From contig DAIDLH010000051.1 of NCBI GenBank assembly GCA_027449605.1, positions 45,037-109,036 of the forward strand: DNA of 64,000 nucleotides, given 5' to 3'. Under the pieces are notes generated by a model. It did no database searches. It had not been told where the DNA came from and saw nothing but the letters and a program-made list of their open reading frames with translations. Each line of letters starts with the position of its first letter. Within the stretch, counting starts at the first letter, position 1. The translations under genes and the position numbers were made by a program. The stretch comes from Candidatus Muproteobacteria bacterium. GTDB taxonomy: Bacteria; Pseudomonadota; Gammaproteobacteria; Acidiferrobacterales; Sulfurifustaceae. Of the stretch, positions 29,572-53,844 are shown one piece after another.

Positions 29572-30644
29572 GCGGATGCCATCTCCTGGTATCGCTCGAC
29601 CTGGCTGATCGAAAACCGACGCATGTTTTCACTTTTCTGATACGCCTTGTACCACTCTGTGCTCCATTCGAGTGCGGAAGCTAACGTGAGCCTGGGGCGC
29701 CAAGCCAAGCGGGTTTTGGCCTTGGAGCAATCCAACTTGAGGTAATTCGCCTCGTGAGGCTGAGGGGAGGTATCGCGTGTCCAACACGCTCCGTTACCCC
29801 ACAGCGTGACGAGATGGTCGACAATCCAGGATACCGGTTTTGCGTCATCTTCATCCGCGCCGAAATTCCAGGCTCCGGCGTAGTGCCCCCCCTGCTTCCA
29901 CATCAACTCGATGAGTTGCAGATAACCCTGTAACGGCTCGAGCACATGCTGCCAAGGGCGGACAGCATCCGGATGACGGATCAAGACTGGATGCCCTTTC
30001 AGGAAGGCGCGTACGATATCCGGCAGCAACCGATCCTGCGCCCAATCCCCGCCGCCGATCACATTACCGGCCCGCGCGCTCGCGACAGCTACCGGACGAA
30101 AAGACGCGTTGTCCCCGCTGAAATAGGATTTTCGGTAAGCCGCCGTCACCAGCTCCGCGCAACCCTTACTGCTTGAGTAAGGGTCGTAACCGCCCATGGG
30201 CTCATGCTCGCCGTAACCCGTTAGCCGTTCCCTGTTCTCATAGCATTTATCGCTCGTGATGATCAGGGCAACACGAACGTCGTCGCTGTGGCGCACGGCT
30301 TCCAGCACATTGACCGTGCCCATGATATTCGTGGCGTAAGTCTCCACAGGGTTATTATAGGAATAACGCACAAGCGATTGGGCTGCCATGTGAATGACGA
30401 TTTCCGGCCGATGATTTTTCACCGCTGCTTTCACCGCCGTCAGGTCGCAAACGTCATCGTTCAACGAAATCATCCCTTCAGCCACATTGGCGGATTCGAA
30501 AAGATTGGGCTGGGAAGGAGGCTTGAGGGAATAGCCGATAACCTTGGCCCCTAGCTGCTGCAACCACAGACAGAGCCACCCGCCTTTGAAACCCGTGTGG
30601 CCGGTCACCAGCACCCGCTTGCCCCGCCAAAAGGAAGAATTCAT
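29568..30644 (-). CDS. rfbG: CDP-glucose 4,6-dehydratase
   Basis: FWRGKRVLVTGHTGFKGGWL, TSDKCY, YSSSK, RPWQHVLEPL; TGATG coupling with rfbF. Confidence 0.95.
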   Translation of the reverse strand: MNSSFWRGKRVLVTGHTGFKGGWLCLWLQQLGAKVIGYSLKPPSQPNLFESANVAEGMISLNDDVCDLTAVKAAVKNHRPEIVIHMAAQSLVRYSYNNPVETYATNIMGTVNVLEAVRHSDDVRVALIITSDKCYENRERLTGYGEHEPMGGYDPYSSSKGCAELVTAAYRKSYFSGDNASFRPVAVASARAGNVIGGGDWAQDRLLPDIVRAFLKGHPVLIRHPDAVRPWQHVLEPLQGYLQLIELMWKQGGHYAGAWNFGADEDDAKPVSWIVDHLVTLWGNGACWTRDTSPQPHEANYLKLDCSKAKTRLAWRPRLTLASALEWSTEWYKAYQKSENMRRFSISQVERYQEMASA

Positions 30645-31411
30645 CACCAGATTTTCCAGGGCGCTTTGCCGGCGGCCCATAATTTCTCTAGATAATTCTT
30701 GTCACGCAACGTGTCCATGGGATGCCAAAAACCGGCATGCAGGTAGGCGGAAAGATTTTTTTCTTTCGCCAGCTTCTCCATGGGCTCCCGCTCCCATAAA
30801 GTCTGGTCGCCTTCGATATAATCGATCACCTTCGGCGAGAGGACGAAGAAACCGCCGTTGATCCAACCACCATCCCCATGAGGTTTCTCGACGAAACCGG
30901 ACACCTGCCCCTGCGTGATGTTCAGGGAACCGAATCGCCCGGGCGGCTGCACGGCCGTGACGGTCGCGAGCAATCCATGTTTCTCATGTTGCGCGATCAA
31001 CTCCCGGATGTTCACGTTGCCTACTCCGTCACCGTAGGTCAGGCAGAAATTTTCGCCACGGAGATAGGGCTTCACGCGCTTGAGGCGACCGCCGGTCATG
31101 GTGTTTTCGCCGGTATCCACCAGGGTCACGCGCCAGGGTTCGGCGTTGTTTTGATGAACCTCCATGTGGTTTCGTGACATATCGAACGTCACATCGGACA
31201 TGTGCAGAAAGTAATTGGCGAAGTACTCCTTGATCATGTAGCCCATATATCCGCAGCAGATGATGAAATCGTTGACGCCGTGCGTGGAATAGATCTTCAT
31301 GATGTGCCAGATAATCGGTTTGCCACCGATTTCGATCATGGGCTTGGGTCGCAGGTGCGACTCTTCGCTGATCCGGGTGCCCATACCACCGGCGAGTATG
31401 ACCGCTTTCAT
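30644..31411 (-). CDS. rfbF: Glucose-1-phosphate cytidylyltransferase
   Basis: [40 protein letters not shown]. Confidence 0.96.
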
Positions 31412-32985: not shown

Positions 32986-33717
32986 TCACCGAACGCGTGA
33001 ATCGTTCAATCTGGACTCGACCAGCGGATATTCCCGTTGGGCCCGTTCCAGACTGTCCACGGTGCCGATATCCCGATGATAAACCGCGTTGTGGAATGTG
33101 TTGATCCGACCCAAATAATGCGGAAGCACTTCGGTGCTGAAATCCACCGCTTCTTTTCCCAGCGAGGCGATATATTCGATAACCGCGGGTGAAAGGATAT
33201 ACACCGCCGCATTGGCCAAACGGCCCGGGGGGTGGCTGACTTTTTCGTGAAAGGCACGGACGATGCCTTGCTCGTCTAGCTCAACAATTCCACATGTTTC
33301 CGGCGAATCCGTCATGAAGGTCATCATCGTCATGTCAGCGCCGGCCGGCCGTCGGTCGTATGTCTGCATGAAAGCGGGCATATCGAATTTCGAGAGGTTG
33401 TCGGCGTGGATCAGCATGACCGGCCCGTCCTCGAAAAAACGGCGATTCTTGAGCAGCGTGCCCGCGGTCCCGAGCAACTTTTCCTCGAAAACCGTGGTAA
33501 TGAAATCCGAATAGCCCGAACGATCGATATAATCGTTGACCGCCTCCGGAAGATAATGCGTATTGATAAGTACCTTTTTGACCCCCGCGCCAATCAACAG
33601 GCCCAGCCAATATGAAAGAAGCGGGCGGCCATTGATCGGCACCAGGCACTTAGGTACATGGTCGGTCACTGGTCGCAAGCGCGTGCCCAAACCGGCTGAC
33701 AAAAGCAACGCACGCAT
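32986..33717 (-). CDS. Sugar-1-phosphate nucleotidyltransferase (HddC/GmhD-like)
   Basis: LLSAGLGTRLRPVTD.VPKCLVPI.GRPLL, LLGTAG, HADN, F.EK, DIGT. Confidence 0.85.
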   Translation of the reverse strand: MRALLLSAGLGTRLRPVTDHVPKCLVPINGRPLLSYWLGLLIGAGVKKVLINTHYLPEAVNDYIDRSGYSDFITTVFEEKLLGTAGTLLKNRRFFEDGPVMLIHADNLSKFDMPAFMQTYDRRPAGADMTMMTFMTDSPETCGIVELDEQGIVRAFHEKVSHPPGRLANAAVYILSPAVIEYIASLGKEAVDFSTEVLPHYLGRINTFHNAVYHRDIGTVDSLERAQREYPLVESRLNDSRVR

Positions 33718-33723
33718 GGGGTC

Positions 33724-35226
33724 TCAGGCCGGAAGCTCGAAGTTCTTCATTTCCGCCTGAAGATCGGACGGCCTCAGAGGAATATTGCCGATCCTGCCGA
33801 CCTGGCAGGCAGCCGCCAGCGATCCGAGATAGGCGCTTTTCCAGATATCGCAGCCCACCGCCATGGCCATGGAAGCGCACGTCAGCAGGGAATCACCCGC
33901 ACCGGCGATGTCTTTGGGCGCCGTATTGAAGCTCTGGAGCCGGTCGGTATGCCACTGTTCCCCGTTCGACGACGCCGCATGGATGAGAACGCCCTCCGCG
34001 CCCAGCGTGATCAACACATTCTTCGCCTGCGCCTCCACCCGCAATGTTTCCGCGAGCACAACGAGCCCCGAATTGAAATCTCTAACCGATATTCTTGCCT
34101 CGCGCTCGGTCGGTGTAATCAATGCCATGCCTTTGAACCGGGAGACGTTACCCACCTGCGAGGATGACTGGCTGTCCGCCACCATCATGATGCCTTTCCC
34201 CCGGCAATGGTCGATCAACGCGTTCACCAGCGCCTGAGGCAAACAGCCATAATTGAAATCGGAGAAAATCAACAAATCCGCGCGCGTCAGCGCCTCTTGC
34301 GCATCCCAGAATATCTTTTGTTGTATCTCCTTGCTGATATCCTGATTTCTCAGATGACTGACACGGAGAAGCGTCTTGTTGCTGGTACGAAAGCGCTGTT
34401 TCAGCGTGGTGGGCCGGCTATCATCCTCGTAAAGCGAATGACTGACGCCATATTCATCCAACCAATCCCTGGTCATTTGCGCCGTGACGTCCTTGCCGGT
34501 CACCGATATGAAGTCCACTTCTGCTCCAAGACCCCGGGCGTGCGCCGCCACGATCGCCGCGCCCCCGATGAACTTCTCGCTCAACACGGGTGATACGACG
34601 ATGGTCGGGTCTTCCTGGGACATGCCGAGGGGATCGCAGGTGATATATTCATCCACGATCGTGTCGCCAATGACGCAAATCCTGAGGCCGCGCATTTTTA
34701 CCAGCGCCTCGTTCAGCTCTTGCATCGCGAAACCATGACGATGCAAGAAATCCCTGGGGGCGACGATGGTGGAATAATTGACTTGCTGGAATTCCTTCCG
34801 CAGCAAATCCAACGAGGAGAATGAGACATCGCCGGAACTGAAGAGGAGTTTACCGCCGTAGGCGCTGACCGCCTGCGTTTCCGTATTGATGCCGGTCTCG
34901 TGCTCCTTGCCCTTGACGACAACGTTTGGCCGCAATTGTGCGATGAACTCCTCGGGAGCATCGCGCAACAAGAATGAGTAGCCGACCAGGCTGATGGATC
35001 TGACGCCTTCCAGTCGCAACTCCTCCTCGAGCAAGGCGCCTTGCGAGCGCTTGTCGTTGACGCCAACGACAAGAAAATCCCCGCATTCCGCCGCGAAGCG
35101 CAATAATCTCAGGTGGCCTGGGTGGACGATATTGAAATTGCCGCTGACGAAGACGATTTTCTTTTTCCCGCCAACCCTTCTCCTTATCTCGGTCAGGGCG
35201 TTGATGGAATCGGCGTGCAGTGACAT
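33724..35226 (-). CDS. Bifunctional nucleotidyltransferase (N-terminal) and PfkB kinase (C-terminal), HldE-like with swapped domain order
   Basis: SGNFNIVHPGHLRLL at the N-terminus; IGDTIVDEY, EAPTIV-like EDPTIV, SDFNYG, TPTERE, DIAGAGD at the C-terminus. Confidence 0.85.
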   Translation of the reverse strand: MSLHADSINALTEIRRRVGGKKKIVFVSGNFNIVHPGHLRLLRFAAECGDFLVVGVNDKRSQGALLEEELRLEGVRSISLVGYSFLLRDAPEEFIAQLRPNVVVKGKEHETGINTETQAVSAYGGKLLFSSGDVSFSSLDLLRKEFQQVNYSTIVAPRDFLHRHGFAMQELNEALVKMRGLRICVIGDTIVDEYITCDPLGMSQEDPTIVVSPVLSEKFIGGAAIVAAHARGLGAEVDFISVTGKDVTAQMTRDWLDEYGVSHSLYEDDSRPTTLKQRFRTSNKTLLRVSHLRNQDISKEIQQKIFWDAQEALTRADLLIFSDFNYGCLPQALVNALIDHCRGKGIMMVADSQSSSQVGNVSRFKGMALITPTEREARISVRDFNSGLVVLAETLRVEAQAKNVLITLGAEGVLIHAASSNGEQWHTDRLQSFNTAPKDIAGAGDSLLTCASMAMAVGCDIWKSAYLGSLAAACQVGRIGNIPLRPSDLQAEMKNFELPA

Positions 35227-35293
35227 GCTTAGAACCTCGATATAGTCATCAAACGGGGTTTCGACGCATGAGAAACGAAAGCCGACGTTCGGT

Positions 35294-36343
35294 TCATGAA
35301 TGTTCCCCGAGCACAATCAAGGGTCTTCCCACCCGGCGTTCTTCCAGATCATCCAGGGCTTGGTTGATCTCTTCGAGCCGGTAACGTTTCGTAATGAGCT
35401 TTTCGAGCGGCAACTTTCCCTCGCGGTAGAGCCGTCCGAACAAGGGGATGTCTTCATCCGGACTGCTCATGCCTCCCCAGCTGCCCTCCAGTCGCTTACC
35501 GCAAATAAAGTCATAGGGATCGAGACGAATCTTTTCTCCGTGCGCCGGGTGGGATGCGAAAACGCATAGTCCGCCGCGGTTTCGCACCGACTTAAAAGCC
35601 TGTTCTATGGTAGCGGTAAGACCCGCGGCTTCTATGCTGTAATCGACCCCTGTTCCCCCGGTGAGGCGGTAAACAGCCTCCACGGGGTCCGACTCGCTGC
35701 TGTCGACCGCGTGCGTCGCGCCGAATTCACGCGCGAGAACCAGCTTTTCAGGTTCGACGTCCACGGCGATTACCATCGCACAATCGAAGAGCCGCGTTGC
35801 CATCAGGGCGCTCAACCCGATGCCCCCCAGCCCGAAAACGGCGACCGTGCTGCCCTTCGCAGGCCTGATGGTGTTGGTGACGATGCCCGCGCCGGTCGGG
35901 ATGGCGCAGCCAAAAAGAACCGCGATGTCCATGGGCACGCCCTCGGGAAGTCGCACACACCGGTTTTCCGAGACAACGGAATATTCATTGAATGTCGTAA
36001 CACCACCGGCATTGATCTTCCTTCCATTCTGCTCGTATACCGTGCCTCCGGCATCGAGCCCTCCGCCTTTTATCCAGCCGAGTATGACGTGATCACCCGG
36101 TCGGACTTTCGTGACGCTGGGCCCCACTTCGACAACCTCGCCCGAACCCTCGTGCCCCAACAAATGCGGAAGATATGAATCGGTGCCACGCCGGCCACGC
36201 GCTTCCATCAGCTGACTGTGGCAGACCCCGCTATAGGCGAGCTTGACGAGCACCTGCCCCTGGCGCGGTACCGGAACCGAAATTCCGTCTTCGATGGCCA
36301 ATGGCTGACCGAGCTGTTGTAATACCGCCGCCTTCATTTTCAT
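35294..36343 (-). CDS. Zinc-binding medium-chain dehydrogenase/reductase
   Basis: VCHSQL, GHEGSG, FGCAIPTG, GLGGIG; the structural-Zn tetracysteine loop is absent. Confidence 0.88.
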   Translation of the reverse strand: MKMKAAVLQQLGQPLAIEDGISVPVPRQGQVLVKLAYSGVCHSQLMEARGRRGTDSYLPHLLGHEGSGEVVEVGPSVTKVRPGDHVILGWIKGGGLDAGGTVYEQNGRKINAGGVTTFNEYSVVSENRCVRLPEGVPMDIAVLFGCAIPTGAGIVTNTIRPAKGSTVAVFGLGGIGLSALMATRLFDCAMVIAVDVEPEKLVLAREFGATHAVDSSESDPVEAVYRLTGGTGVDYSIEAAGLTATIEQAFKSVRNRGGLCVFASHPAHGEKIRLDPYDFICGKRLEGSWGGMSSPDEDIPLFGRLYREGKLPLEKLITKRYRLEEINQALDDLEERRVGRPLIVLGEHS

Positions 36344-36376
36344 GTCACTGGCCGCCTCGAGAGTATCCGCGACGCG

Positions 36377-38170
36377 TCAATTCCGGGAAACCGCCAACGG
36401 CGGAACGATCATGGTCTCGAGAAATTCTTTCCTGTCGAGAAACGGTTCGGAATCCTCGATCGGCCGCCCGAATTTCACTTGTGGAATGACGCGATGCGTA
36501 TTCTTAATATCCACGTTGCAGAAGATCGGGCCCGGATGATTCACCGCCTCGGATAACGTCGCGTGTAATCCGGCATTGGCGCGTATATCGAGAGTCTTGT
36601 AGCCATACGCCTCGGCAATGCGCGTGAAATCGGGCATGGCGAGTCCGCCTGCAACCGTGGAAGCTATGTACTTCGAGCCCAGCCACTGGTCCTGTGTCTG
36701 CTGTATCATGCTGTATCCATGGTTGTTCAGCAGGATAATCTTGATGGGGAGATCGTGCCGCAACACGGTCGCCAACTCCTGGATATTCATCTGCAAACTG
36801 CCGTCCCCGGTTACACAGATGACCGACTTTTTATCTTGCGCCAGGCACCCCCCGATGCTCGCCGGTAACGCATATCCCATCGCCGTGTTATTGAAATCGT
36901 GGATTATTCGTTGCCCCCGTTTTACTTCAAAAGCCTGCATCATCCAGGCAATGGCGCAGCCCGTGTCGACGTAAATAGACGCTTCTTCCGGCAGCACGGC
37001 AGAAAGGGTTTTGACGAAAACATAAGGATTAACTGGTTCTTCCCCATAGTATCGCCGGGGACAGATGGGGTATCTCGCCTTCCATCCGTCGATTTTCCGT
37101 TTCCAGTCCGAAATATCACCCAGCCGGTCCCGTTCGAGCGCGCGCGCAAGATTCGTGGTGAATTCGCCGGCATCCGCGCAGATAAGAAGATCGGTATCCA
37201 TCCCGAACTTGATGAACTTTCCCAGTTCCGCTGGATCGATATCGACGACAATTTTTGTTGCGCCGCGCGCAAACGTGGAAAGCGGACTGCCGGCTTCGTG
37301 GGTATCCAGCCGGGTGCCGATGGCGAGAACCAAGTCGGCATTCTGCACCGCGAAATTTCCGTAACGCGTGCCGTGGGTGCCGAACGAACCGACCAGTTGC
37401 GGGTGATCGTGGTGTAGAAAATCAACCATGCCCCATGTGGGAACCACCGGAAAACCGAGCTTCTCGATCAGTTCCCGAGCGGCGATATCCGCCTTTGCCA
37501 GACGGATGCCCCAGCCCGTGATCAATACCGGTCGTCGGGCCCTATAGAGATGCGCCAGGCATTTTTCCACTTCGCTTTTTACCTTGCCGGCCGCGGCGGC
37601 GCGTGACGCGTTTTCCGGCTCTGGCGCATAACTTTCAAGCGTCTCGGCCTGAATCTCATCGCGCTGTACGTTGTCGGGAATATCGACCAACACCGGTCCT
37701 GGCCTGCCTGTTCGTGCGATATGGCAGGCTTTTTCCAATTCATACCGGATCCTCTTCGGGTCTTTAATGACCGTGACGTACTTGGTCACCGGGCGGCACA
37801 TCTCCACGATATCGGTTTCCTGAAAACCATACTGTCGCACCCCGGTATCCGCCTTGAAACGGAAGGTCGTAACCTGTCCGGTGATGAATATCGTCGGCAC
37901 CGAGTCATAATAAGCACAGCAGATGCCGGTTATCAGATTCGTCGCGCCGGGACCGCTGGTGGCAATCGCCGCACCGAGGTTGCGCGTGGCGCGCGCATAA
38001 CCGTCCGCCGCCATGGCGCCGGCTTGCTCATGCTGTGGGCAGATATAGTCGATGTCAGGATGCTCGGCGATGGAATGGATTAAATGCAGCGAAGCGCCGC
38101 CGGAGATGGCAAACACATGGCGAATCCCCTGCTTGGCCAGGAAATCGGCTACGAAATCCGATAGTTTCAT
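36377..38170 (-). CDS. Acetolactate-synthase-like ThDP enzyme (YerE-like candidate)
   Basis: Start MKLSDF at 38170; HEQAGAMAADGY, TSGPGATN, RPGPVLVDIP, GDGSLQMNIQEL...NNHGY; no small subunit nearby. Confidence 0.88.
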   Translation of the reverse strand: MKLSDFVADFLAKQGIRHVFAISGGASLHLIHSIAEHPDIDYICPQHEQAGAMAADGYARATRNLGAAIATSGPGATNLITGICCAYYDSVPTIFITGQVTTFRFKADTGVRQYGFQETDIVEMCRPVTKYVTVIKDPKRIRYELEKACHIARTGRPGPVLVDIPDNVQRDEIQAETLESYAPEPENASRAAAAGKVKSEVEKCLAHLYRARRPVLITGWGIRLAKADIAARELIEKLGFPVVPTWGMVDFLHHDHPQLVGSFGTHGTRYGNFAVQNADLVLAIGTRLDTHEAGSPLSTFARGATKIVVDIDPAELGKFIKFGMDTDLLICADAGEFTTNLARALERDRLGDISDWKRKIDGWKARYPICPRRYYGEEPVNPYVFVKTLSAVLPEEASIYVDTGCAIAWMMQAFEVKRGQRIIHDFNNTAMGYALPASIGGCLAQDKKSVICVTGDGSLQMNIQELATVLRHDLPIKIILLNNHGYSMIQQTQDQWLGSKYIASTVAGGLAMPDFTRIAEAYGYKTLDIRANAGLHATLSEAVNHPGPIFCNVDIKNTHRVIPQVKFGRPIEDSEPFLDRKEFLETMIVPPLAVSRN

Positions 38171-38207
38171 GATGGCAGGTTGCGTTGACCGGAGCCCAAA
38201 CGAAAAA

Positions 38208-39071
38208 TCATTTGCACCACGGCATCCGGGGCTTGCAGGAAACGAACAAAGACCCGTCACGATAGCTGGTCGGCATGTCCTGAATCGAACGCACCTGCGC
38301 CCAACCGGTCTTTTGTGAGAAGAGATTTGCGCCGAGCGCAGAAAGATGATCAAAGATCAAACCAGCATTCCGTTCGTTTCCGATCTCGATGATAGCGTCA
38401 CAATGGCGCCACTGGGAAGACGTGGTAACGGAAAGAATTTCCCATTCATGTCCTTCCGCATCGATCTTGAGAAAGTCGGCCCAATCGATCAAGTCGGCAA
38501 TTGCTTCCACCTTGACGGGAAATCTCTCCAAGTCGCCGTATGGATTATCTTTCGATCCCGCCAGATGGCTTCCCGTCGTATTGCCGAGAACGCGCACGAA
38601 TTCCATTTCTCCCGCCGCTTTCGAGACGGCGGCATTGAACGTTTCAACTTTTGCGCAATCATTGGCCCGCAGGTTGCTGTCAAGGACGTCGAAATGCTTC
38701 GGGTCGGGCTCGTATGAGCGGACATGAAATCCGCACTTGCACATCAAGATGGAATGCACCCCGATATTCGCACCGATATCGACGACATTTTTGTAGCGCT
38801 CTCTGTTCAGCCAATAGAAACTGAAAATGATCAATTCGTCCAAACCGAATAAATCCAGGGAGTCGATCGCACCCATGCTGTGGTAAGGAAATACAATCGA
38901 GCCGAACGGGCCGAAAGCCTTTGGATTCATTTTTTTATCGCTGAACAAATCCTCGATGTCACGGCGCGCGATCCGCTTGAGCAGTTCATACCAGCGACAG
39001 TTGGGGGCATGGTAAGCAGGGGCCTCCGGAAGAGCGAGAATCAGCTCGGAGATAATGGATTGGTCGCTCAC
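38208..39071 (-). CDS. FkbM-family methyltransferase
   Basis: VDIGANIGVHS, SYEPDP, LKIDAEGHE. Confidence 0.85.
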   Translation of the reverse strand: MSDQSIISELILALPEAPAYHAPNCRWYELLKRIARRDIEDLFSDKKMNPKAFGPFGSIVFPYHSMGAIDSLDLFGLDELIIFSFYWLNRERYKNVVDIGANIGVHSILMCKCGFHVRSYEPDPKHFDVLDSNLRANDCAKVETFNAAVSKAAGEMEFVRVLGNTTGSHLAGSKDNPYGDLERFPVKVEAIADLIDWADFLKIDAEGHEWEILSVTTSSQWRHCDAIIEIGNERNAGLIFDHLSALGANLFSQKTGWAQVRSIQDMPTSYRDGSLFVSCKPRMPWCK

Positions 39072-39119
39072 GATAATGTGATACCTCGTTTCATATGCAT
39101 TAAAAACCGGGTCGGCCGA

Positions 39120-39932
39120 TCAACCGGCGCGTCCGGATTCCACGCGTCTAAGCTTGTAAAGCTGTGGATTGCCGGCAAGAGCCCGCTCAAGCTCGACGCT
39201 GCCCGCTCGCGTCCCCCAATGATCCCAGACCACTGAAAAGTTCCTTCCGCCGGCGACCGGACGACCCTTATCCTTCAGCCAGTTGATGCAGCCGTAAATA
39301 TCCTCCAAGGGTGTACCCGCCTCGTTCCTGCCCAGAAACTCACGTGTCCGGCCGTAATTTGCGCCGGCCGCGTTTCCAGCCTGCATCGTTTGCGCATGAA
39401 TATTGCTTTTAACCCATCCCGGTCCGACGATAAAGTAGTTAATTTCCTTATCTTCGACATCAAGGTACTCGACTGTCTTCGTCAGCGCGATCTTGGCAAT
39501 GCTGTACGCTGAAAAATTCTCGAGCACGCCATTGGGCGCGCCGCCGGTGAAAAAGGCAACCGCGGCTCCAGGACGGTGCAGGCGATGAATTTCATGCAAC
39601 AGGCGCAACTGACCGAAAAAGTTGGCGTCAAATGACTTTTGCCAATCATCGAAACTGATTTTGAAGAAATTTCCTATCGGCTCGAGCAATCCGATGCTCA
39701 AGATCAGCAGGTCCCAGCCATATTGCTTTTGGGCGAGCACGGTTTTAAACGCCTCAATCGACGCGGGATCGGTGACGTCCAGAAGATGCAAATTGACGCC
39801 TTCCAGCTTGGATAAAATGGCCGATGTGGTCCGGTAGGTCCCCGAAACGTCCCATTTATCGCGCCGGTAAAGCCTGGCCAGCGACGAGCCGATTCCGCTG
39901 TTCACGCCGGCGATCAAGACCTGCTTTCTCAT
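39120..39932 (-). CDS. Classical SDR oxidoreductase
   Basis: AGVNSGIG, NFFGQ, YSIAK, PGWVKS. Confidence 0.82.
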   Translation of the reverse strand: MRKQVLIAGVNSGIGSSLARLYRRDKWDVSGTYRTTSAILSKLEGVNLHLLDVTDPASIEAFKTVLAQKQYGWDLLILSIGLLEPIGNFFKISFDDWQKSFDANFFGQLRLLHEIHRLHRPGAAVAFFTGGAPNGVLENFSAYSIAKIALTKTVEYLDVEDKEINYFIVGPGWVKSNIHAQTMQAGNAAGANYGRTREFLGRNEAGTPLEDIYGCINWLKDKGRPVAGGRNFSVVWDHWGTRAGSVELERALAGNPQLYKLRRVESGRAG

Positions 39933-39951
39933 GGCAATGTCTTTCCGGACA

Positions 39952-41010
39952 TCAGAATGGTCCCTTAAACCAGTCGCCGGGAACGTCGTGGGGCGATTGG
40001 CGGTTTTTCTCCGCTGCATCCGGTTTCAGATCCTGGCCAAGCATCTCGCTCGTTACGCGCACAATATCCGCGGCACCGCGGTAATATCCGCGTGTCAACG
40101 CCGGGCTGGTCGGTGAAGGAAAATCAGGCATCGCGATCCGGCGTGGCGCCTGCTTCAAGACATCGAACAGATGCATGGCGCTCCGGGCGATCACCTCGCC
40201 CGCGAAAGAGCCGGTTTCCGAAGCCGTATCCAAGACAAGCAACCGGCCGGTCTTCCTGACCGAAACCGCTATCGCTTCCCAGTCCAGCGGCATGATCGTG
40301 CGCAGATCGATCAGATCGCAACCCACTCCCAATGCCTTCATGTGCGCCGTAGCATGAAGCGCTTCGATGGTCATATACGACATCGACACGATGGTCAGGT
40401 CGTCGCCTTCCTCGAGCAGGTGCGCCTTGCCGATGGGTACCCAGAAATCGCCTTGCGGCACATCCCCCTCGACGTTGTGCAGCCAGCGGTGCTCCAGAAA
40501 AACAACCGGGTTGTCGTCAAAAATGCTGGAAAGGAGCAATCCTTTCGCGTCGGCTGGCGTCGTGGGCATGACAACCTTGAGACCCGGCACGTGCGCGAAC
40601 CAGGACTGCAGGTTCTGCGAATGCGTAGGGCCCTGGCCCCATCCTCGGCCGAGAATCAAACGAATGGTAATAGGAACGGATTGCTGACCGCCGAACATGT
40701 AGTACCACTTGGCAGCGTTGTTCACGAGCTGGTCCATCGCCAGAAGGAAGAAATCCAGGCGCTGATGAGTCATGACGGGCCGGATGTCATTCATCGAGGC
40801 GCCTATGCCCACGCCGGTCATCGCGTTCTCCGAGGTCGGCATGTCGAACACCCTGTCCTCGCCGAACCGGTCCTGCAAACCAAGAGTGGTGCCGAAGATG
40901 CCTTTCGGATCATCCACTCCCAGGCCGTAACAAATGACCCGTTGATCGGCCTCCATGGCGCATGCCAATGCCTCGTTGATCGCCTTGGCGAAATTAATGA
41001 CGCGCATCAC
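39952..41010 (-). CDS. 2-oxoacid dehydrogenase E1 beta-like subunit
   Basis: FDMPTSENAMTG..IGA, GQGPTHSQ, PGLKVVMP, DLRTIMPLD. Confidence 0.9.
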   Translation of the reverse strand: MMRVINFAKAINEALACAMEADQRVICYGLGVDDPKGIFGTTLGLQDRFGEDRVFDMPTSENAMTGVGIGASMNDIRPVMTHQRLDFFLLAMDQLVNNAAKWYYMFGGQQSVPITIRLILGRGWGQGPTHSQNLQSWFAHVPGLKVVMPTTPADAKGLLLSSIFDDNPVVFLEHRWLHNVEGDVPQGDFWVPIGKAHLLEEGDDLTIVSMSYMTIEALHATAHMKALGVGCDLIDLRTIMPLDWEAIAVSVRKTGRLLVLDTASETGSFAGEVIARSAMHLFDVLKQAPRRIAMPDFPSPTSPALTRGYYRGAADIVRVTSEMLGQDLKPDAAEKNRQSPHDVPGDWFKGPF

Positions 41011-41030
41011 GGGTTGTCCATGTCGGCCAG

Positions 41031-42041
41031 TCAGTCCTTGTACAAATGGGTAAACGTCTCGTCCGCGGATGGAAAGGGCGAAGATTCGGCAAACGCAAAG
41101 GCCTGCTCCACCTCATGCCTGATATCCGCCTCCATCCGGCCGATGTCTTCCTTCCCCAGAGCGCCCGTACCGACCAACTGTCCTTCAAGCCGCTCGATCG
41201 GATCCTTGGATTTCCAGGACAGAAATTCGTCTTGGGACCGGTAACCGATATCGTTGTCAAAATTCGGTCCGCAATGCTCCCGCCAACGGTAAGTGGTAAA
41301 TTCAAAAAACCGAGGGCCGGCGCCATTCCGGATCTCCTCGACCGCAGAGCGGACGCGGGTGTATACATCAACCACGTCATTGCCGTCACCCGATTCGCTC
41401 GGGACGCCCAGGGACCCGACCATGGCGTGAATCGAGCGCCCTGGAGGCTGACGGACTCGCATGGGGGAATAAACCGAATAAAAATTATTCTCGCACACAA
41501 AAAGCACGGGTAGCTTCTTCAACGCGGCGAAATTGGCCGATTCGAAAAATACGCCTTCCTCGACGGCGCCATCACCTAAAAAAACGGTGCTGATCTGATC
41601 GCCACCACGCAGCCTGATCGACAACCCCAACCCTACGCCCACCGGGATAGTGCTGGCGACAATCGCCGTGCTCCCCATGAAACCGACATCGCGGTCGATG
41701 AGATGCATTGAACCGCCCTTTCCGCCGCTGCAGCCCGTGGCTTTACCATAGATTTCCGCGATCATTTTTTTGAGGTCGCCGCCCTTTCCGAGGTAGTGGC
41801 CATGGGCGCGGTGACCGCTCACCGCAAAGTCGCCCGCACGCAAGGCCATTCCAACCGCGGCGGATACCGCCTCCTGGCCAATGGAAAGATGCGTCGGACA
41901 ACGCATCTTTCCCTCGGGATAGCGCTCGGCGATGGCTTCTTCCACCATCCGAATCCGCTTCATCCGGTAAAGCAGTTCACGGGCCAGGCCCGCATCCGCA
42001 ACACGCGGATTGTCCAGGCTTTCCCTGGCGGTCAAACTCAT
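41031..42041 (-). CDS. 2-oxoacid dehydrogenase E1 alpha-like ThDP subunit
   Basis: HLSIGQEA, GKGGSMH, GDGA...ENN ThDP motif, YRWREHCG; ATGA overlap with the upstream gene. Confidence 0.9.
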   Translation of the reverse strand: MSLTARESLDNPRVADAGLARELLYRMKRIRMVEEAIAERYPEGKMRCPTHLSIGQEAVSAAVGMALRAGDFAVSGHRAHGHYLGKGGDLKKMIAEIYGKATGCSGGKGGSMHLIDRDVGFMGSTAIVASTIPVGVGLGLSIRLRGGDQISTVFLGDGAVEEGVFFESANFAALKKLPVLFVCENNFYSVYSPMRVRQPPGRSIHAMVGSLGVPSESGDGNDVVDVYTRVRSAVEEIRNGAGPRFFEFTTYRWREHCGPNFDNDIGYRSQDEFLSWKSKDPIERLEGQLVGTGALGKEDIGRMEADIRHEVEQAFAFAESSPFPSADETFTHLYKD

Positions 42042-42697
42042 GGAATGAACCAGTAATAATCGCCGCTGTAGCCCACTTCCTTGAAGAACTCCTTCCATTC
42101 GTCGACGTGCATGATCGTGCGCCCGGTCAGATTCCAGTCATACATCCGGCGCTTCTCCTCTTCGTTGCGATATGCATCGACGGTAATGAAACTGCCGCGC
42201 CGGCTGACGCGTTCGATCTCGCGCAACGCTTGCCCGCATTCGTTTCTCTCGAGGTTGTGTACGGTATTGATGGAAATAACCATGTCAAAACTTTTATCGG
42301 GAAACGGGAGATGATTCGCATTGGCCACCTGAACGTGCGGCTTCATGTCTTCGATCGCGTTCTCGATGGCGTAAGCGGAAATATCAACTCCCTTCACCGT
42401 TATGCCGGGAATCAACAACGCCATATCGTGCAACATGAATCCCTTGGCGCAACCCACGTCCAGCACGGAACTTTCCGCGCTCAACTTGAAATGTTGCCGG
42501 AAAGTGGGAATTACCGGTTGCCAGAAGCGAGATTGGTAATTGAATCCGCCGTACCCGTGGCTGCGGTCACCGTCGAAGAACTCTTTTCCAAACCGGCGGG
42601 CAATGGCACGATCTTCTTCGCTCTTGGTCTTGCCACGCTCTTCGACATTGCGCTTGGTGCGCGGATAATTTTCCATCAAATCAATTTCCATTCCCAT
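42038..42697 (-). CDS. Class I SAM-dependent methyltransferase
   Basis: FFDGDR.HGYGG, VLDVGCAKGFML, GVDIS, SINTVHNL. Confidence 0.85.
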   Translation of the reverse strand: MGMEIDLMENYPRTKRNVEERGKTKSEEDRAIARRFGKEFFDGDRSHGYGGFNYQSRFWQPVIPTFRQHFKLSAESSVLDVGCAKGFMLHDMALLIPGITVKGVDISAYAIENAIEDMKPHVQVANANHLPFPDKSFDMVISINTVHNLERNECGQALREIERVSRRGSFITVDAYRNEEEKRRMYDWNLTGRTIMHVDEWKEFFKEVGYSGDYYWFIP

Positions 42698-42783
42698 GTT
42701 TCTCCTGTCATTCCCCATATTCCGGCTTCCAACAACGAACCGATGCAAGCCCTGAAAATAAAAATACGAGCGTGTCGTGCGAG

Positions 42784-43767
42784 TTACTTCTTATGTATGT
42801 AATCCAGGGGCTGCTGTTTGAGCGCTTCAAGATTTTCTTCCATCCACGCGATGGTTTCATCTATACCTTGCTCCAACCCGACCTGATCCCGCCACCCGAG
42901 CGAGTGCCGTGCCTTACTGCTATCGAGGAGATACGCGGCGTCCTTCCCCAGCCGCTCGCTCACTATCTCAACGTGATCCTCGAAGGATTTCCCCATGCGG
43001 ATGCATATCATTTCAACTATCTCGCGAATCGACAATGTCCGAACCGTTGACAAATGATATATCTCGCCGGGTTTTCCCTGAAGCGCCGCTTTGAGCGTGC
43101 CGTCCGATACGTCACGAATGTGGATGAACGAGCGTACCGACTGGCCGCCGCCATGAAGCTGCAGCTTGCGGCCGAGCCTTACGAATAGCGCCGTTCGGGG
43201 AATAATCCGGTAAAGCTGCTGACCCGGTCCGTACACGTTCGCCGCCCGCGTGAAAACGACCGGAAATCCGTAAGCACTGAAGAACGTCTTCAGGCTCATG
43301 TCGCATGCGGCCCGCGATACCGCGTAGGGCGTGCTGGGATTGTAGGATGCATCTTCGGTCACGTTACCCTGGCAGCTCCCGTAGACCTCGGGCGTGGAGA
43401 TGTGCACATATTTGTCCAGAAAATCACAGTGACGCAACCGATCATGCAGACGGACGCTCGAAACCGTATTGGTCATGAACCAGTCTTCCGGATGCTCCCA
43501 GCTTTGGGCGACCATGCTCTGCGCCGCAAAATTCACGACGTACTCGGGTCTGAATTGCAGTATCACCTCCATGATCCGGGCAAGATCATGGTTAAGATCA
43601 AGCTGGTGGAACCGGAATGACGGATACGATTTCCACTTGTAGGGCAAAAAAGCATCGTGAGGTTCAGGCGAACGACTGATACCCATGACCTCCGCACTGG
43701 CTTCCAGGGCATAACGGACAAAGCTCGCCCCCGAAAATGAATTACTCCCGATAACGACCAGTTTCAT
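42784..43767 (-). CDS. RmlB/Gmd-like NDP-sugar 4,6-dehydratase
   Basis: NFAAQSMV, STPEVYG, PSTPYAVSR (Arg at the usual Lys), NVYGPGQ, RSFIHI.D, GKDAAY.LD. Confidence 0.78.
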   Translation of the reverse strand: MKLVVIGSNSFSGASFVRYALEASAEVMGISRSPEPHDAFLPYKWKSYPSFRFHQLDLNHDLARIMEVILQFRPEYVVNFAAQSMVAQSWEHPEDWFMTNTVSSVRLHDRLRHCDFLDKYVHISTPEVYGSCQGNVTEDASYNPSTPYAVSRAACDMSLKTFFSAYGFPVVFTRAANVYGPGQQLYRIIPRTALFVRLGRKLQLHGGGQSVRSFIHIRDVSDGTLKAALQGKPGEIYHLSTVRTLSIREIVEMICIRMGKSFEDHVEIVSERLGKDAAYLLDSSKARHSLGWRDQVGLEQGIDETIAWMEENLEALKQQPLDYIHKK

Positions 43768-43785
43768 ATCGCGCGTGTCCCGACG

Positions 43786-44379
43786 TTAATCATGAGAAGT
43801 CGCCGACAAGGTTTGCATCACCATATGTCCAACGATCAGCTGCAGATCCTCGGCGATCTGCATGTCGTTGACCGGGAAATGAATGGCGACGTCGGCGAGC
43901 TTCAGGCACTGCCCGCCCGAATACCCGAGCACGGCGAATGACTTTACCCCGATCTCCCTGGCCTTTTGCAGCGCCTTAACGACATTGGGTGAATTCCCGC
44001 TGCCTGACAGGACGATGAGGACGTCACCGGCTTCGGCTTGTACCGCCAGTTGCCGCGAAAATATTTCGTCATAACCGAGATCGTTTCCCAGACACGTTAA
44101 CACCGAGGTGTTGGCCGATAGGGCCGAAACCTTAATGCCTTGACCGTCTTTAGCGACGCCATACAGCAAATCATTGGAAATATGCATGGCATTGGCGGCA
44201 CTACCGCCGTTACCGCACAAAAAGACCCGGCGTTTTTCCTTCCACGCCGTGTGGAGACCCTCAGCCAGCAACAATACCTTGCTCCAGTCGTATCCGGTCA
44301 GGCTGGACTGAAGACGCACCGCATAACCCGCTAGCGATTCCTTGTTCATTACGTTCACCGCCGTTTGTCTTTGCGACAT
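43786..44379 (-). CDS. SIS-domain GmhA-like sugar-phosphate isomerase
   Basis: CGNGGSAANA.H, ND.GY..IF..Q, SGSGNSPNV. Confidence 0.85.
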   Translation of the reverse strand: MSQRQTAVNVMNKESLAGYAVRLQSSLTGYDWSKVLLLAEGLHTAWKEKRRVFLCGNGGSAANAMHISNDLLYGVAKDGQGIKVSALSANTSVLTCLGNDLGYDEIFSRQLAVQAEAGDVLIVLSGSGNSPNVVKALQKAREIGVKSFAVLGYSGGQCLKLADVAIHFPVNDMQIAEDLQLIVGHMVMQTLSATSHD

Positions 44380-44424
44380 GTATGAATTAATCGGCCTAAT
44401 TTCTGCGGAAGTGGCTGATAAGCA

Positions 44425-45363
44425 TTACACCACCGATTTTTTCATCCACTTTAAATTATAAAATTTTTCTTCATCCTTCAGCAGCCCCTTGCCATAGGCA
44501 TCGATGATCTCCTTGATGGCGTCCTCTACGGTCTTCTTGGGTGAAAAGCCGGTCGCCAGCAGTTTGTCGGAGTTCACCCGGTACGATCGGGGATCGTTCG
44601 ATTCGGTAATCTTGATTTCCGCCGGAACGTGTTTTTTTACCAGCTCGGCGATGGACAGAATCGACAGATTCTCAAATCCGGCGTTATAGATGCCTTGCGC
44701 CTTGTCTCGCTTGTCGATGAAATGCAGGTAAAGATCCGTGATATCGTCGATATGGATATTTGGACGCGTCTGCTGGCCGCCGAAAACTGTTATCAAACCC
44801 CGGGTCAGCGCCTGCATGGTCAGCATGTTCACCGACACATCCAGTCTCATGCGCGGGGAATATCCACAGACCGTGGCTGGACGGACAATTTGAACCAGCA
44901 AATCCCGGCTATAGCTGAGCAACACCCGCTCGGCGACCATCTTGGTCTTGTTGTATTCCGAAATAGGTTTCAAGGGCAGATCTTCGGTTACTTTCTCCTC
45001 GTCTTTGATCCCATAAACGCTCCCCGAGGAGGCATAGATGAATTGCCTGACTTTGTTGCGAACCGCCGCGTCCGCCAGCTGCATGGTTGCCAGGGCGCTG
45101 ATCTCCCACGTCAGTTTGGGGTCGAGGTCGCCGCATGGATCGTTCGCGACAGAAGCAAGATGGATAACGATATCCATTCCCTTCAGCGAAATCTCATCGG
45201 TTTTGCGGACGTCACCCTTGATGACTTCGAGGCGATCGTGAGGAGCAAGGAAGTTCCCGAACCACATGGTGTCCACCACGGTCACCTGATAACCCCTCGC
45301 CAATAGTTTGGGCACCAGGATCGTCCCCTTGTAACCGCAACCGCCTGTAACCAAAACGCGCAT
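44425..45363 (-). CDS. Extended SDR NDP-sugar epimerase/dehydratase
   Basis: TGGCGYKG, HLASVANDP, ASSGSVYG, YNKTK, RPNIHI.D. Confidence 0.82.
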   Translation of the reverse strand: MRVLVTGGCGYKGTILVPKLLARGYQVTVVDTMWFGNFLAPHDRLEVIKGDVRKTDEISLKGMDIVIHLASVANDPCGDLDPKLTWEISALATMQLADAAVRNKVRQFIYASSGSVYGIKDEEKVTEDLPLKPISEYNKTKMVAERVLLSYSRDLLVQIVRPATVCGYSPRMRLDVSVNMLTMQALTRGLITVFGGQQTRPNIHIDDITDLYLHFIDKRDKAQGIYNAGFENLSILSIAELVKKHVPAEIKITESNDPRSYRVNSDKLLATGFSPKKTVEDAIKEIIDAYGKGLLKDEEKFYNLKWMKKSVV

Positions 45364-45387
45364 CTACCTCTCCTTTAACTTAGCTTG

Positions 45388-46632
45388 TTACCCGAAACCC
45401 GTTCTCGCCGGCAACGGACCCGGTCCGGCTTTATCCGTTTCATAGCGATCAAGCAGAAATTCCGCGAAGGCAAAGGCGCTCGTGAACGCGGGCGAGATCG
45501 CATTGAGCACGTGCATGGAAGACGCCGTCTGCTCGACAATGAAGTCCATCTCGAGCTTCTTGGAACGCAAATTGACCAGCTGCGGACGAATTCCGGTTTT
45601 ATCCGTGGGGATAAGATCGGCCGAAGTAATTTCCGGCACGAGGCGGCGCGCCGCCCGCACGAAATTCGTCTTGATGTATTTTGCCAGCTCATGATGGACC
45701 AATCGGCGAAACCCCTGGTGATTTTTAAAATACATCTCGACCAGTTCCCATGCGATTCCCATGCTTTCCGAGACATTGATCCCTTTCAACAGGCCGTAGT
45801 TTTCCCTCCCCAACGCGGGTATGGCTGTGGGACCGGCGTAGACGTCGCCGGAAATGACGCGAGTAAGGTGCACACCCAGAAAAGGCAGGGAAACATCAGG
45901 GACGGGGTATATGTTGGCCTTGACCAGGTCGCTTCGTTCCTGACGCAGTTTAAAATAGATGCCCTTGAACGGCAGCAGGATATAATCGTTCGCCAAACCG
46001 AACTTTTTCGCAATACGGTCGGCGTAAGCGCCGGCACAATTGAAGAAATACCCATACCTATATCCGCTGCCGCTAGCATACACGATATTCTGTTCAGGTT
46101 TGACCGCCGTAACTTCCTGTCCGGTCATCAACGTCACACCCTTTTCACGTAACAAGTTCCAGAGTTTTTTGACCACGCCGATGCTGTCGATAACAGCGGT
46201 ATCGGGGCAGTATAACCCGAACCGGTGGGCACGTGCGTGCGGCTCGATCTCCCTGATCCCCGATTCGCTCATTTTTACCGCTCGCAGATTGTTTGTCTTG
46301 GCATTGACCAGCAATCGTTCGATGATCGGAAGATCGTGCTCGTCCGTCGCGATGATTATTTTACCGGACTGAAGACACGATACACCGTGCTCCGCCGCGA
46401 ACACGCGCATGCGCGCGCCTCCCTTTGAACACAGCTGAGCCTTCAGGGTGTCCCGGCCGTAGTAAATGCCGGAATGAAGCACGCCGCTGTTCCGGCCGCT
46501 GGCGTGTTTCCCCGGCTGGGGTTCTTTCTCAAGCACGCAAACGTTGGCTTTGGGATATCGTTTCTTCAGCTCAAGGCCCAGCGTCAGGCCAACAATTCCC
46601 GCACCAACAATCAAAAAATCGTAACTCCGCAC
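45388..46632 (-). CDS. lhgO: L-2-hydroxyglutarate oxidase-like FAD oxidoreductase
   Basis: GAGIVG, HASGRNSGVLHSGIYY, YPVPD...PFLGVH, GIRPQ, NAISPAFTS. Confidence 0.85.
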   Translation of the reverse strand: MRSYDFLIVGAGIVGLTLGLELKKRYPKANVCVLEKEPQPGKHASGRNSGVLHSGIYYGRDTLKAQLCSKGGARMRVFAAEHGVSCLQSGKIIIATDEHDLPIIERLLVNAKTNNLRAVKMSESGIREIEPHARAHRFGLYCPDTAVIDSIGVVKKLWNLLREKGVTLMTGQEVTAVKPEQNIVYASGSGYRYGYFFNCAGAYADRIAKKFGLANDYILLPFKGIYFKLRQERSDLVKANIYPVPDVSLPFLGVHLTRVISGDVYAGPTAIPALGRENYGLLKGINVSESMGIAWELVEMYFKNHQGFRRLVHHELAKYIKTNFVRAARRLVPEITSADLIPTDKTGIRPQLVNLRSKKLEMDFIVEQTASSMHVLNAISPAFTSAFAFAEFLLDRYETDKAGPGPLPARTGFG

Positions 46633-47645: not shown

Positions 47646-47648
47646 AAG

Positions 47649-48767: not shown

Positions 48768-48769
48768 GC

Positions 48770-51958: not shown

Positions 51959-51994
51959 ACTATGAACACTATATCCCCCCGACCGTCCGGTCAA
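51951..51994 (-). promoter_or_regulatory. Putative sigma70 promoter with an overlapping 8-3-8 operator palindrome
   Basis: TTGACC (51994-51989), N17, TAGTGT (51971-51966), N7, ATG; GTGTTCAT-ACT-ATGAACAC at 51951-51969. Confidence 0.65.
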
Positions 51995-52010
51995 GAATTT
52001 TCAGCCGTTT

Positions 52011-52535: not shown

Positions 52536-52542
52536 TTCGGGA

Positions 52543-53844
<1,302 letters not shown>

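Follow-up and report, generated by a model that had tools for sequence, protein, structure and literature searches.

Introduction

What does a polysaccharide gene cluster make with two thiamine diphosphate (ThDP)-dependent enzyme systems and a set of heptose-activating enzymes? The question is posed by a 64,000-nucleotide stretch of contig DAIDLH010000051.1 from a Candidatus Muproteobacteria bacterium (hereafter, the window), in which 13 co-directional minus-strand open reading frames (ORFs) occupy positions 32986-46632, the gaps between them being at most about 86 nucleotides and closing to a start/stop overlap at MT1/E1alpha. In order of transcription, the block encodes an LhgO-like oxidase; a short-chain dehydrogenase/reductase (SDR) first labelled an epimerase (EPI); a SIS-family isomerase (SIS); a dehydratase-like SDR (DH46); a methyltransferase (MT1); the two subunits of a ThDP enzyme of 2-oxo acid dehydrogenase type (E1alpha and E1beta); a classical SDR; an FkbM-family methyltransferase; an acetolactate synthase (ALS)-like ThDP enzyme; a Zn-dependent dehydrogenase (Zn-ADH); a nucleotidyltransferase-kinase fusion; and a sugar nucleotidyltransferase (NT). 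An original prediction, made from the letters of the sequence, had named these tightly packed genes, placed them inside a polysaccharide operon and held that no E2, E3 or ALS small subunit accompanies them. Pfam and NCBIfam profile searches of the window ORFs reproduced all of its gene labels, and its coordinates, strand and domains were borne out. The block does sit inside a long minus-strand polysaccharide cluster (about 3-55 kb), and E2, E3 and the ALS small subunit were absent from all window ORFs of at least 200 amino acids.

Three ThDP superfamilies branch keto-sugars by adding C2 or longer units to them, namely YerE-like decarboxylases, E1alpha/beta-type enzymes (alpha-KADH2, for alpha-keto acid dehydrogenase 2) and split transketolases, and the latter two are known mainly from antibiotic pathways (2025 review, PMC12247030). 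Here we argue, at a probability of roughly 60%, that the block builds a nucleotide-activated, chain-extended, methylated sugar from sedoheptulose-7-phosphate for the O-polysaccharide; our confidence in the details of the scheme is much less. The block is an intact member of a widespread, modular and biochemically uncharacterised operon family, and seven of its genes have orthologues in a bradyrhizose operon.

An orthologous operon is tied to bradyrhizose by genetics

In Bradyrhizobium ORS285, Tn5 and insertion mutants in gdh (BRAO285v1_100023) no longer make the bradyrhizose O-antigen (Busset et al., 2016, PMC4743980), and gdh belongs to an eleven-gene operon conserved in six photosynthetic bradyrhizobia (PMC4743980). 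The published gdh primers encode DAFLPYK(W) and DMSLRTYF, and DH46 of the window carries DAFLPYKW and DMSLKTFF at the same spacing. No Bradyrhizobium proteins surfaced in protein searches seeded with Rhodopseudomonas E1beta and Azospirillaceae DH46, and an exact-primer scan of metagenomes gave no match. A degenerate-primer metagenome scan returned high-G+C contigs bearing a variant of the cassette; one metagenome DH46 shared a 90% cluster with ORS285 protein CCD83612.1 (exact cluster look-up), which led to an ORS285 contig (L103) that both published gdh primers match exactly.

The ORS285 operon on this contig reads, in order, fusion, NT, EPI, SIS, gdh, transketolase N-terminal subunit, transketolase C-terminal subunit, Zn-ADH, a 204-amino-acid protein, an APH-family kinase and a methyltransferase. 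Of the window genes, seven are orthologous to members of it (fusion 52% identity, NT 53%, EPI 72%, SIS 55%, DH46/gdh 60%, Zn-ADH 49% and MT1 44%), and these seven are clustered in both organisms, although in a different gene order. The two operons diverge in their ThDP enzymes: between its dehydratase and its Zn-ADH, ORS285 has a two-subunit enzyme that is a split transketolase, not the E1alpha/beta of the window, and its operon lacks E1alpha/beta, the ALS-like enzyme, SDR, FkbM and LhgO. Conversely, the transketolase, 204-amino-acid protein and APH kinase of ORS285 are absent from the window, where tblastn gave only weak E1 cross-hits.

The structure of the ORS285 product bears on what such an operon could make. 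Bradyrhizose is a ten-carbon bicyclic sugar whose aldehyde can close onto O4, O5 or O9, and from this we infer that C9 is bonded to a quaternary C4, the outcome that ThDP-mediated addition to a 4-keto-sugar would be expected to give. By this analogy the carbon count would fit bradyrhizose as well, with seven carbons from heptose, two from a transketolase-transferred unit and one from a methyl group making ten.

The block belongs to a widespread modular operon family

The original prediction had suggested a synteny search for the 13-gene set, and this returned a full match together with a core that recurs across phyla. A Pseudomonadota metagenome-assembled genome (MAG; candidate loci L001/L007) holds all 13 genes in identical order at 54-78% protein identity, and because the order recurs in another organism the arrangement is not due to chance. 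More than 100 database relatives of E1beta, at 69-76% identity, came from very different phyla, and rearranged cassettes were found on Elusimicrobia, Leptospiraceae and Patescibacteria contigs. A distribution scan with one genome per GTDB species yielded 585 candidate loci; the best 80 of these (E1beta identity 60-76%) represent at least 80 species genomes from many phyla, among them Leptospira, Rhodopseudomonas, Legionella, Coxiellaceae, Prochlorococcus, Arcobacter, Sulfurimonas, Roseibium, Balneatrix, Viridibacterium and Asaia.

We then scored gene co-occurrence in a tblastn matrix over 86 loci. EPI (66/86), DH46, MT1, E1alpha and E1beta form a core present in 66-86 loci, accompanied by SIS, Zn-ADH (62/86), the fusion and NT in 35-65 loci. 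The genes for SDR, FkbM and the ALS-like enzyme are optional and vary together as a trio, each of them occurring in 33-40 loci. Pairings of ThDP enzymes were counted in the 51 loci whose sequence reached 7 kb or more to both sides of E1beta (the 'fully covered' loci): 23 had E1 with the ALS-like enzyme, 5 had E1 with a split transketolase and 23 had E1 alone, while E1beta lay beside EPI, DH46 and MT1 in 40. The original prediction had named no characterised pathway that combines both ThDP classes with heptose activation; as a claim of uniqueness this does not hold, since the same 13 genes occur in L001/L007, and two ThDP systems in 23 of 51 loci make them a common configuration of the family. 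The module is composite: the ALS-like/SDR/FkbM genes are an optional addition to a conserved core, and LhgO is seldom linked to it. No E2 or E3 was found in five annotated loci. A literature search on the gene combination, and on links among flagellin, heptose and thiamine, found no prior description of the cassette.

Other members show further variation. Ten loci (L008, L015, L022, L023, L029, L033, L039, L047, L061 and L074) carry E1alpha/beta with a split transketolase in place of the ALS-like enzyme, a third pairing of ThDP systems, and these transketolases are 36-44% identical to the Bradyrhizobium-type one. Separately, B12-binding radical S-adenosylmethionine (SAM) enzymes often lie in or beside the cassette (at least 30% identity in 13 loci, including L003/L004 of Leptospiraceae, L002, L005, L011 and L024); the window has none.

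Proposed heptose activation, oxidation and dehydration

The isomerase, anomeric kinase and nucleotidyltransferase of nucleoside diphosphate (NDP)-heptose activation are all present in the block, each scoring below its equivalog cut-off. The kinase domain of the fusion is PfkB-type and heptose-7-phosphate kinase-like (best PDB match HldA, 4E84), and its domain order is the reverse of that in HldE, as in Coxiella CBU0678. The nearest PDB relatives of NT are mannose-1-phosphate guanylyltransferases and HddC (5XHW).

The closest solved structure to EPI was 6VO6/6VO8 (E = 8e-46; next match 1e-27), taken here to be Cj1427 of Campylobacter jejuni, and the catalytic YxxxK motif is kept, with EYnktK of EPI aligning to EYgidK of 6VO6. 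Cj1427 is a C4-dehydrogenase with a ping-pong mechanism that converts alpha-ketoglutarate to L-2-hydroxyglutarate (PMC10680097). By sequence, then, EPI is most likely a Cj1427-like C4-dehydrogenase and LhgO the recycler of its by-product; an LhgO gene would stand in a sugar operon because such an EPI would release L-2-hydroxyglutarate. Four unrelated loci (L007, L011, L052 and L056) likewise have a DAO-family gene, at 28-59% identity, at the head of the cassette. C. jejuni capsular heptose modification shares the Cj1427-type SDR, to which the window adds the adjoining LhgO; unlike the window, the C. jejuni pathway continues with cupin epimerases and C4-reductases, without ThDP enzymes. C. jejuni also activates its heptose by a GHMP kinase (HddA), not by a PfkB fusion.

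The nearest PDB relatives of DH46 are dTDP-glucose 4,6-dehydratases. Its TxE dehydratase signature is well kept: 77 of the 80 orthologues have [ST]TPEVYG, and two others each have a single variant of it. The YxxxK motif has become YxxxR in 66/80 orthologues and has His in place of Lys in 6/80, and in the window copy the nucleotide-binding motif is GSNSFSG instead of GxxGxxG. One speculation is that DH46 may act solely as a dehydratase on the product of EPI. The general chemistry of the original prediction (heptose-type activation, a 4-keto intermediate, ThDP-dependent C2 additions, reduction and methylation) fits all of the homology and synteny, and the ORS285 operon lends it strong indirect support, but two of its enzymes need to be read differently: the 'epimerase' as the C4-dehydrogenase just described, and the 'dehydratase' as an enzyme with an atypical active site.

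Two ThDP systems and their relatives

E1alpha and E1beta are adjacent, the ThDP motif of E1alpha (GDG...NN) is visible, and the cluster supplies no E2 or E3. The best profile matches of the pair were pyruvate dehydrogenase (PDH) E1 alpha and beta, at scores below the PDH equivalog cut-offs. E1beta carries a C-terminal tail of about 28 extra residues (39952-40030, minus strand) ending HDVPGDWFKGPF, which is conserved and family-specific: PDH E1beta profiles stop at residue 319-324 of 352 and so exclude it, and D341, P343, G344, W346, F347, K348, G349 and P350 are invariant among 16 sequences, of which 12 bear the labels of differing high-level taxa. MT1 usually adjoins the pair, immediately upstream in most loci; it is present in 69/86 and is 65-81% identical in most.

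The window pair resembles the alpha-KADH2 sugar-branching pairs of aldgamycin, kosinostatin and kibdelomycin (KbDH-alpha/beta), which likewise combine E1alpha and E1beta without E2/E3 in a keto-sugar pathway. Avilamycin and everninomicin enzymes are further sugar-branching pairs of E1alpha/E1beta type. The known alpha-KADH2 pairs act on TDP-hexose-type sugars of actinomycete antibiotics, whereas the window family has a heptose scaffold, a lipopolysaccharide (LPS) or flagellin glycan context and the extra E1beta tail. Enzymes of this class are expected to move an acetyl group from pyruvate onto a ketone, giving a tertiary alcohol (PMC12247030), and by analogy we propose that E1alpha/beta of the window would transfer acetyl (C2) from pyruvate to a keto-sugar.

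Among PDB entries, the ALS-like protein matched 8RPH best (363 bits), ahead of acetohydroxyacid synthase (AHAS; 294 bits) and PpYerE (5AHK; 287 bits, similar to AHAS); the ThDP motif of 8RPH reads CDG, a reported hallmark of the YerE-like JanthE. YerE-like carboligases (YerE, PpYerE, JanthE, ErwE and MMAR_2332) are three-domain ALS-like proteins without a small subunit, encoded beside a reductase in an LPS cluster, and the window enzyme, apparently closest to JanthE, is likewise. These systems use CDP-3,6-dideoxy-4-keto-glucose, whereas the window has RfbF/RfbG but no DdhC/DdhD-type gene and no aldolase; the acceptor of its ALS-like enzyme is likely a heptose-derived intermediate, not CDP-3,6-dideoxy-4-keto-glucose. 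We also considered the caryophyllose/erwiniose model, in which a YerE-like enzyme and an aldolase act on CDP-3,6-dideoxy-4-keto-glucose (Steitz, 2022), and rejected it for this locus: the window has no aldolase or DdhC/D gene, and in R. palustris the cassette is found at a flagellin locus and has no aldolase, unlike the aldolase-containing O-antigen biosynthetic gene cluster proposed by Steitz et al.

For the miharamycin and amipurimycin high-carbon sugars, split transketolases have been proposed as the enzymes that pass a hydroxyacetyl C2 unit to a keto-sugar (PMC12247030). The window has no split transketolase, but the ORS285 operon does, and 5 of the 51 fully covered loci combine one with E1alpha/beta. 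Judged by sequence, the cassette family appears to mix all three sugar-branching ThDP superfamilies on one scaffold.

Coxiella and flagellin loci

According to published annotations, the phase I LPS ('virenose') region of Coxiella burnetii (CBU_0673-CBU_0693) contains a phosphoheptose isomerase (CBU0674), two epimerase/dehydratase SDRs (CBU0676/CBU0677) and CBU0678, a kinase/adenylyltransferase whose domains stand in reversed order; phase I LPS cannot be made without it, and its function is stated to be unknown (PMC5843353). It also contains a methyltransferase (CBU0683), 'pyruvate/2-oxoacid dehydrogenase' genes (CBU_0686, 0692 and 0693), gmd, fcl and a TylCIII-like C-methyltransferase, and the literature assigns these genes to virenose or fatty-acid metabolism. 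Like the Coxiella region, the window has gmd/fcl and a TylCIII-like C-methyltransferase. The published annotations suggest that the Coxiella phase I LPS locus holds the same gene set as the window, and a Coxiellaceae MAG (L084) carries the core at 50-67% identity. With this gene set apparently present, by annotation, in Coxiella and a transketolase variant known from the bradyrhizose operon, the cassette is uncharacterised rather than unseen.

In Rhodopseudomonas palustris and its relatives (the R. palustris locus L087, positions 1-21053; also L050, L053, L057 and L059) the whole cassette lies between flagellin genes (Flagellin_N/DUF1522/Flagellin_C), which suggests flagellin glycosylation with its product, and it adjoins a gene for a 715-amino-acid protein with tetratricopeptide repeats and a Glyco_transf_41 (GT41) domain. 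The Leptospiraceae cassette is accompanied by GT2- and YfhO-type genes.

A proposed pathway and its alternatives

In the scheme that we favour, SIS would isomerise sedoheptulose-7-phosphate to the 7-phosphate of D-glycero-D-manno-heptose, the PfkB domain of the fusion would phosphorylate C1, and one of the two nucleotidyltransferases would form the NDP-heptose. The Cj1427-like SDR would then oxidise C4 with alpha-ketoglutarate as electron sink, LhgO returning L-2-hydroxyglutarate to alpha-ketoglutarate, and RmlB-like DH46 would dehydrate the sugar across C5/C6. E1alpha/beta, working without E2/E3, is predicted to decarboxylate pyruvate and add a C2 unit to the keto-sugar, after which MT1 would add a methyl group and the Zn-dehydrogenase would reduce the new carbonyl. 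In the configuration of the window, the YerE/JanthE-like carboligase would add a second acyl unit, its partner SDR would reduce it and FkbM would methylate. By analogy with the C7 + C2 + C1 = C10 sugar of Bradyrhizobium, the product may be carbocyclised.

Several observations weigh against this scheme, for which we infer every catalytic step, the nucleotide, the regiochemistry and the final structure from genes and homology. For GmhA, the HldE domains, RmlB, PDH-E1 and AHAS alike, the profile scores stay under the NCBIfam equivalog cut-offs, and the substrates may therefore differ from those of the named families. Neither the window nor the ORS285 operon was found to encode a GmhB-type 7-phosphatase, and because the block has none a housekeeping GmhB, perhaps encoded elsewhere in the genome, would be needed; moreover, the scheme does not account for two nucleotidyltransferases in one block. 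The identification of 6VO6 with Cj1427 was made from its deposited name and N-terminal sequence, and LhgO is linked to the cassette in only 5 of 86 loci. A C4-dehydrogenase together with a 4,6-dehydratase-like enzyme looks redundant, and the YxxxR and GSNSFSG motifs of DH46 mean that its chemistry may be unusual. Finally, the analogy with Bradyrhizobium is partial, because a transketolase stands there, not E1alpha/beta.

The main rival reading holds that two or three unrelated pathways lie side by side, a (6-deoxy)heptose route next to YerE-type branching of the CDP-4-keto-6-deoxyglucose made by RfbF and RfbG, so that the ALS-like trio would serve the neighbouring CDP-hexose pathway. RfbF and RfbG are encoded just downstream of the block, the trio is separable as a unit, and the characterised YerE-like enzymes do use CDP-3,6-dideoxy-4-keto-glucose. 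However, the window lacks both a DdhC/DdhD 3-deoxygenation gene and an aldolase, the CDP pathway already has its own full tailoring set (TylCIII-like C-methyltransferase, RmlC and reductase; 26868-29571), and the trio joins the heptose/E1 cassette in 23/51 fully covered loci, most of which have no RfbF, including the Rhodopseudomonas flagellin loci. We therefore disfavour this arrangement and regard it as unlikely.

Still less probable, in our judgement, is that the ThDP enzymes, Zn-dehydrogenase and SDR make a non-sugar, acetoin- or butanediol-like C4 fragment that is attached to an ordinary heptose. ALS, acetoin-type E1alpha/beta, Zn-ADH and SDR are indeed the families of acetoin/2,3-butanediol metabolism, and many orthologues are labelled 'acetoin:DCPIP oxidoreductase' in JGI annotations; yet about half of the family has no ALS-like gene and keeps E1alpha/beta and Zn-ADH, no acetolactate decarboxylase turned up, nor any transferase that would attach such a unit, the ALS-like protein appears nearer to the ketone-accepting YerE-like enzymes than to AHAS/AlsS, and Bradyrhizobium has a transketolase at the equivalent position and a product with a C10 sugar skeleton. 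That E1alpha/beta is the E1 of a housekeeping or catabolic pyruvate/acetoin dehydrogenase, present in the cluster by chance with its E2/E3 elsewhere, would account for PDH E1 alpha/beta being the best profile matches and agrees with Moses et al., who read the Coxiella copies as acetyl-CoA-supplying enzymes. We give this very little credence: the scores are under the PDH cut-offs, the extra E1beta tail is conserved here and absent from PDH profiles, E2/E3 are missing from the window and from the annotated loci, and the association of E1beta with EPI, DH46 and MT1 (40/51 fully covered loci) extends over many phyla.

Surroundings of the block

The coordinates of the block and of the neighbouring genes are given in Table 1.

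Table 1. Genes of the 13-gene block and selected downstream neighbours. For MT1, E1alpha, E1beta, the SDR, the ALS-like gene and the fusion, the likely start was judged by the lengths of the L001 orthologues and the limit of the longer ORF follows in brackets.
Feature	Position	Strand	Evidence or remark
LhgO-like FAD-dependent L-2-hydroxyglutarate oxidase	45388..46632	-	Pfam DAO; NCBIfam NF008726 338 bits vs cut-off 299 (passes)
EPI: extended SDR, Cj1427-like, proposed NDP-heptose C4-dehydrogenase	44425..45363	-	best structure match 6VO6/6VO8
SIS: sedoheptulose-7-phosphate isomerase-like, GmhA-like	43786..44379	-	Pfam SIS_2; TIGR00441 gmhA 126 bits, below cut-off
DH46: RmlB/GMD-like SDR, proposed heptose 4,6-(5,6-)dehydratase	42784..43767	-	Pfam, NCBIfam; orthologue of ORS285 gdh
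MT1: class I SAM methyltransferase	42038..42697 (ORF to 42748)	-	Pfam Methyltransf_11/25/31
E1alpha: ThDP-dependent, alpha-keto acid dehydrogenase 2 type	41031..42041 (ORF to 42098)	-	Pfam E1_dh; TIGR03182 289 bits vs cut-off 394
E1beta	39952..41007 (ORF to 41010)	-	Pfam Transket_pyr + Transketolase_C; below PDH E1beta cut-offs
Classical SDR, proposed ketoreductase partner of ALS-like enzyme	39120..39935 (ORF to 40019)	-	Pfam adh_short
FkbM-family methyltransferase	38208..39071	-	Pfam Methyltransf_21, TIGR01444
ALS-like ThDP carboligase, YerE/JanthE-like	36377..38170 (ORF to 38353)	-	Pfam TPP_enzyme_N/M/C; below every AHAS equivalog cut-off
Zn-dependent medium-chain dehydrogenase (Zn-ADH), proposed branch-carbonyl reductase	35294..36343	-	Pfam ADH_N, ADH_zinc_N
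Nucleotidyltransferase-kinase fusion: CTP_transf_like (N-terminal) + PfkB (C-terminal)	33724..35226 (ORF to 35316)	-	Pfam; rfaE_dom_I 187 bits, dom_II 66 bits
NT: sugar-1-phosphate nucleotidyltransferase, ManC/HddC-like	32986..33717	-	Pfam NTP_transferase
Multi-pass membrane protein, weakly Wzx-like, 458 aa	31533..32909	-	NF041503 only 46 bits; Pfam: no match
RfbF	30644..31411		just downstream of block
RfbG	29568..30680		just downstream of block
TylCIII-like NDP-hexose 3-C-methyltransferase	28315..29571		Methyltransf_13/14

The polysaccharide cluster has a G+C content of 50-59% when taken as about 8-52 kb and of 50-58% within the limits of about 3-55 kb, against 60-66% in the flanks that carry aroA, cmk, rpsA, lapB and pyrF, a contrast consistent with horizontal acquisition. 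No unannotated gap longer than about 200 bp was found in the cluster (3119-57793); larger ones fall outside it (1-1244, 1998-3118 and 57794-58939). Promoter-like and terminator-like sites were not enriched over shuffled sequence, which weakly supports a single transcription unit. Upstream of the block are aroA, cmk, rpsA, lapB, pyrF, a NusG-like protein gene and ManC-gmd-fcl; downstream are the weakly Wzx-like membrane protein and then RfbF, RfbG, the TylCIII-like C-methyltransferase, RmlC and a reductase, followed by Wzm/Wzt, glycosyltransferases, an AsnB-like amidotransferase, and WbpL-like and WbpM-like genes.

Orthologues of the Wzx-like protein (44-53% identity) occur in 7 loci; in L001/L007, L002 and L005/L006 their genes follow the cassette directly on its downstream side, and the remaining two loci are L024 and L033. 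The protein is possibly a flippase associated with the module, of which its membership is uncertain, and a Wzx-like protein is odd beside the Wzm/Wzt ABC exporter of the cluster. The genes that follow it (26868-31411, minus strand) form a second complete branched-sugar set comprising a glucose-1-phosphate cytidylyltransferase, a CDP-glucose 4,6-dehydratase, the TylCIII-like methyltransferase, an RmlC-like epimerase and an SDR reductase. From these families the predicted product is a CDP-6-deoxy-3-C-methyl-hexose. Virenose, a 3-C-methyl-6-deoxyhexose, is a sugar of the same kind. That the 13-gene module itself makes virenose directly is unlikely, as the separate TylCIII-like pathway (methyltransferase at 28315-29571) suits such a sugar.

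On the other side of the block, gmd and fcl (46665-49088, minus strand) lie directly upstream of the cassette. One or both do so also in Leptospira fluminis, Sulfurimonas and one metagenome contig (L052, L056 and L097), and by annotation the same position is taken in Coxiella (CBU0688/0689). The fcl product of the window has an insertion of about 15 residues and scores 498 bits, just below the 500-bit cut-off. Upstream of ManC, a NusG-family paralogue (268-amino-acid ORF) and a winged-helix protein are encoded at 51356-52817 (minus strand); they could be a cluster-specific antiterminator and regulator.

Discussion

If the proposed pathway is right, it would provide a testable scheme for a cassette carried by no fewer than 80 species-level genomes in many phyla, with candidate loci numbering up to about 585. 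It would also be the first enzyme-level scheme for bradyrhizose, a plant-immunologically silent C10 sugar whose genes were delimited only genetically, and it would extend sugar branching by E1alpha/beta and transketolase from antibiotic biosynthesis to primary cell-surface glycans. Ketone-accepting ThDP enzymes are of interest as biocatalysts for tertiary alcohols.

A broader reading is that the window carries one configuration of a large and hitherto unrecognised 'bradyrhizose-class' family, in which an oxidised and dehydrated NDP-heptose is extended in C2 units by interchangeable ThDP enzymes (E1alpha/beta, split transketolase or YerE-like carboligase) to a structurally varied series of C9-C13 sugars, some of them carbocycle-fused, for O-antigens, flagellin and other surface glycans across phyla. 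We advance this tentatively, at somewhat under even odds. On this broader reading the pair of LhgO and the Cj1427-like enzyme would serve as a dedicated redox shuttle, and the uncharacterised half of the Coxiella phase I LPS locus would make an undetected sugar of the bradyrhizose class. Under the pathway proposed for the block itself, the Coxiella 'pyruvate dehydrogenases' and CBU0678 would become parts of one sugar pathway, in an organism whose full-length LPS is reported to be its only virulence factor defined in an immunocompetent host.

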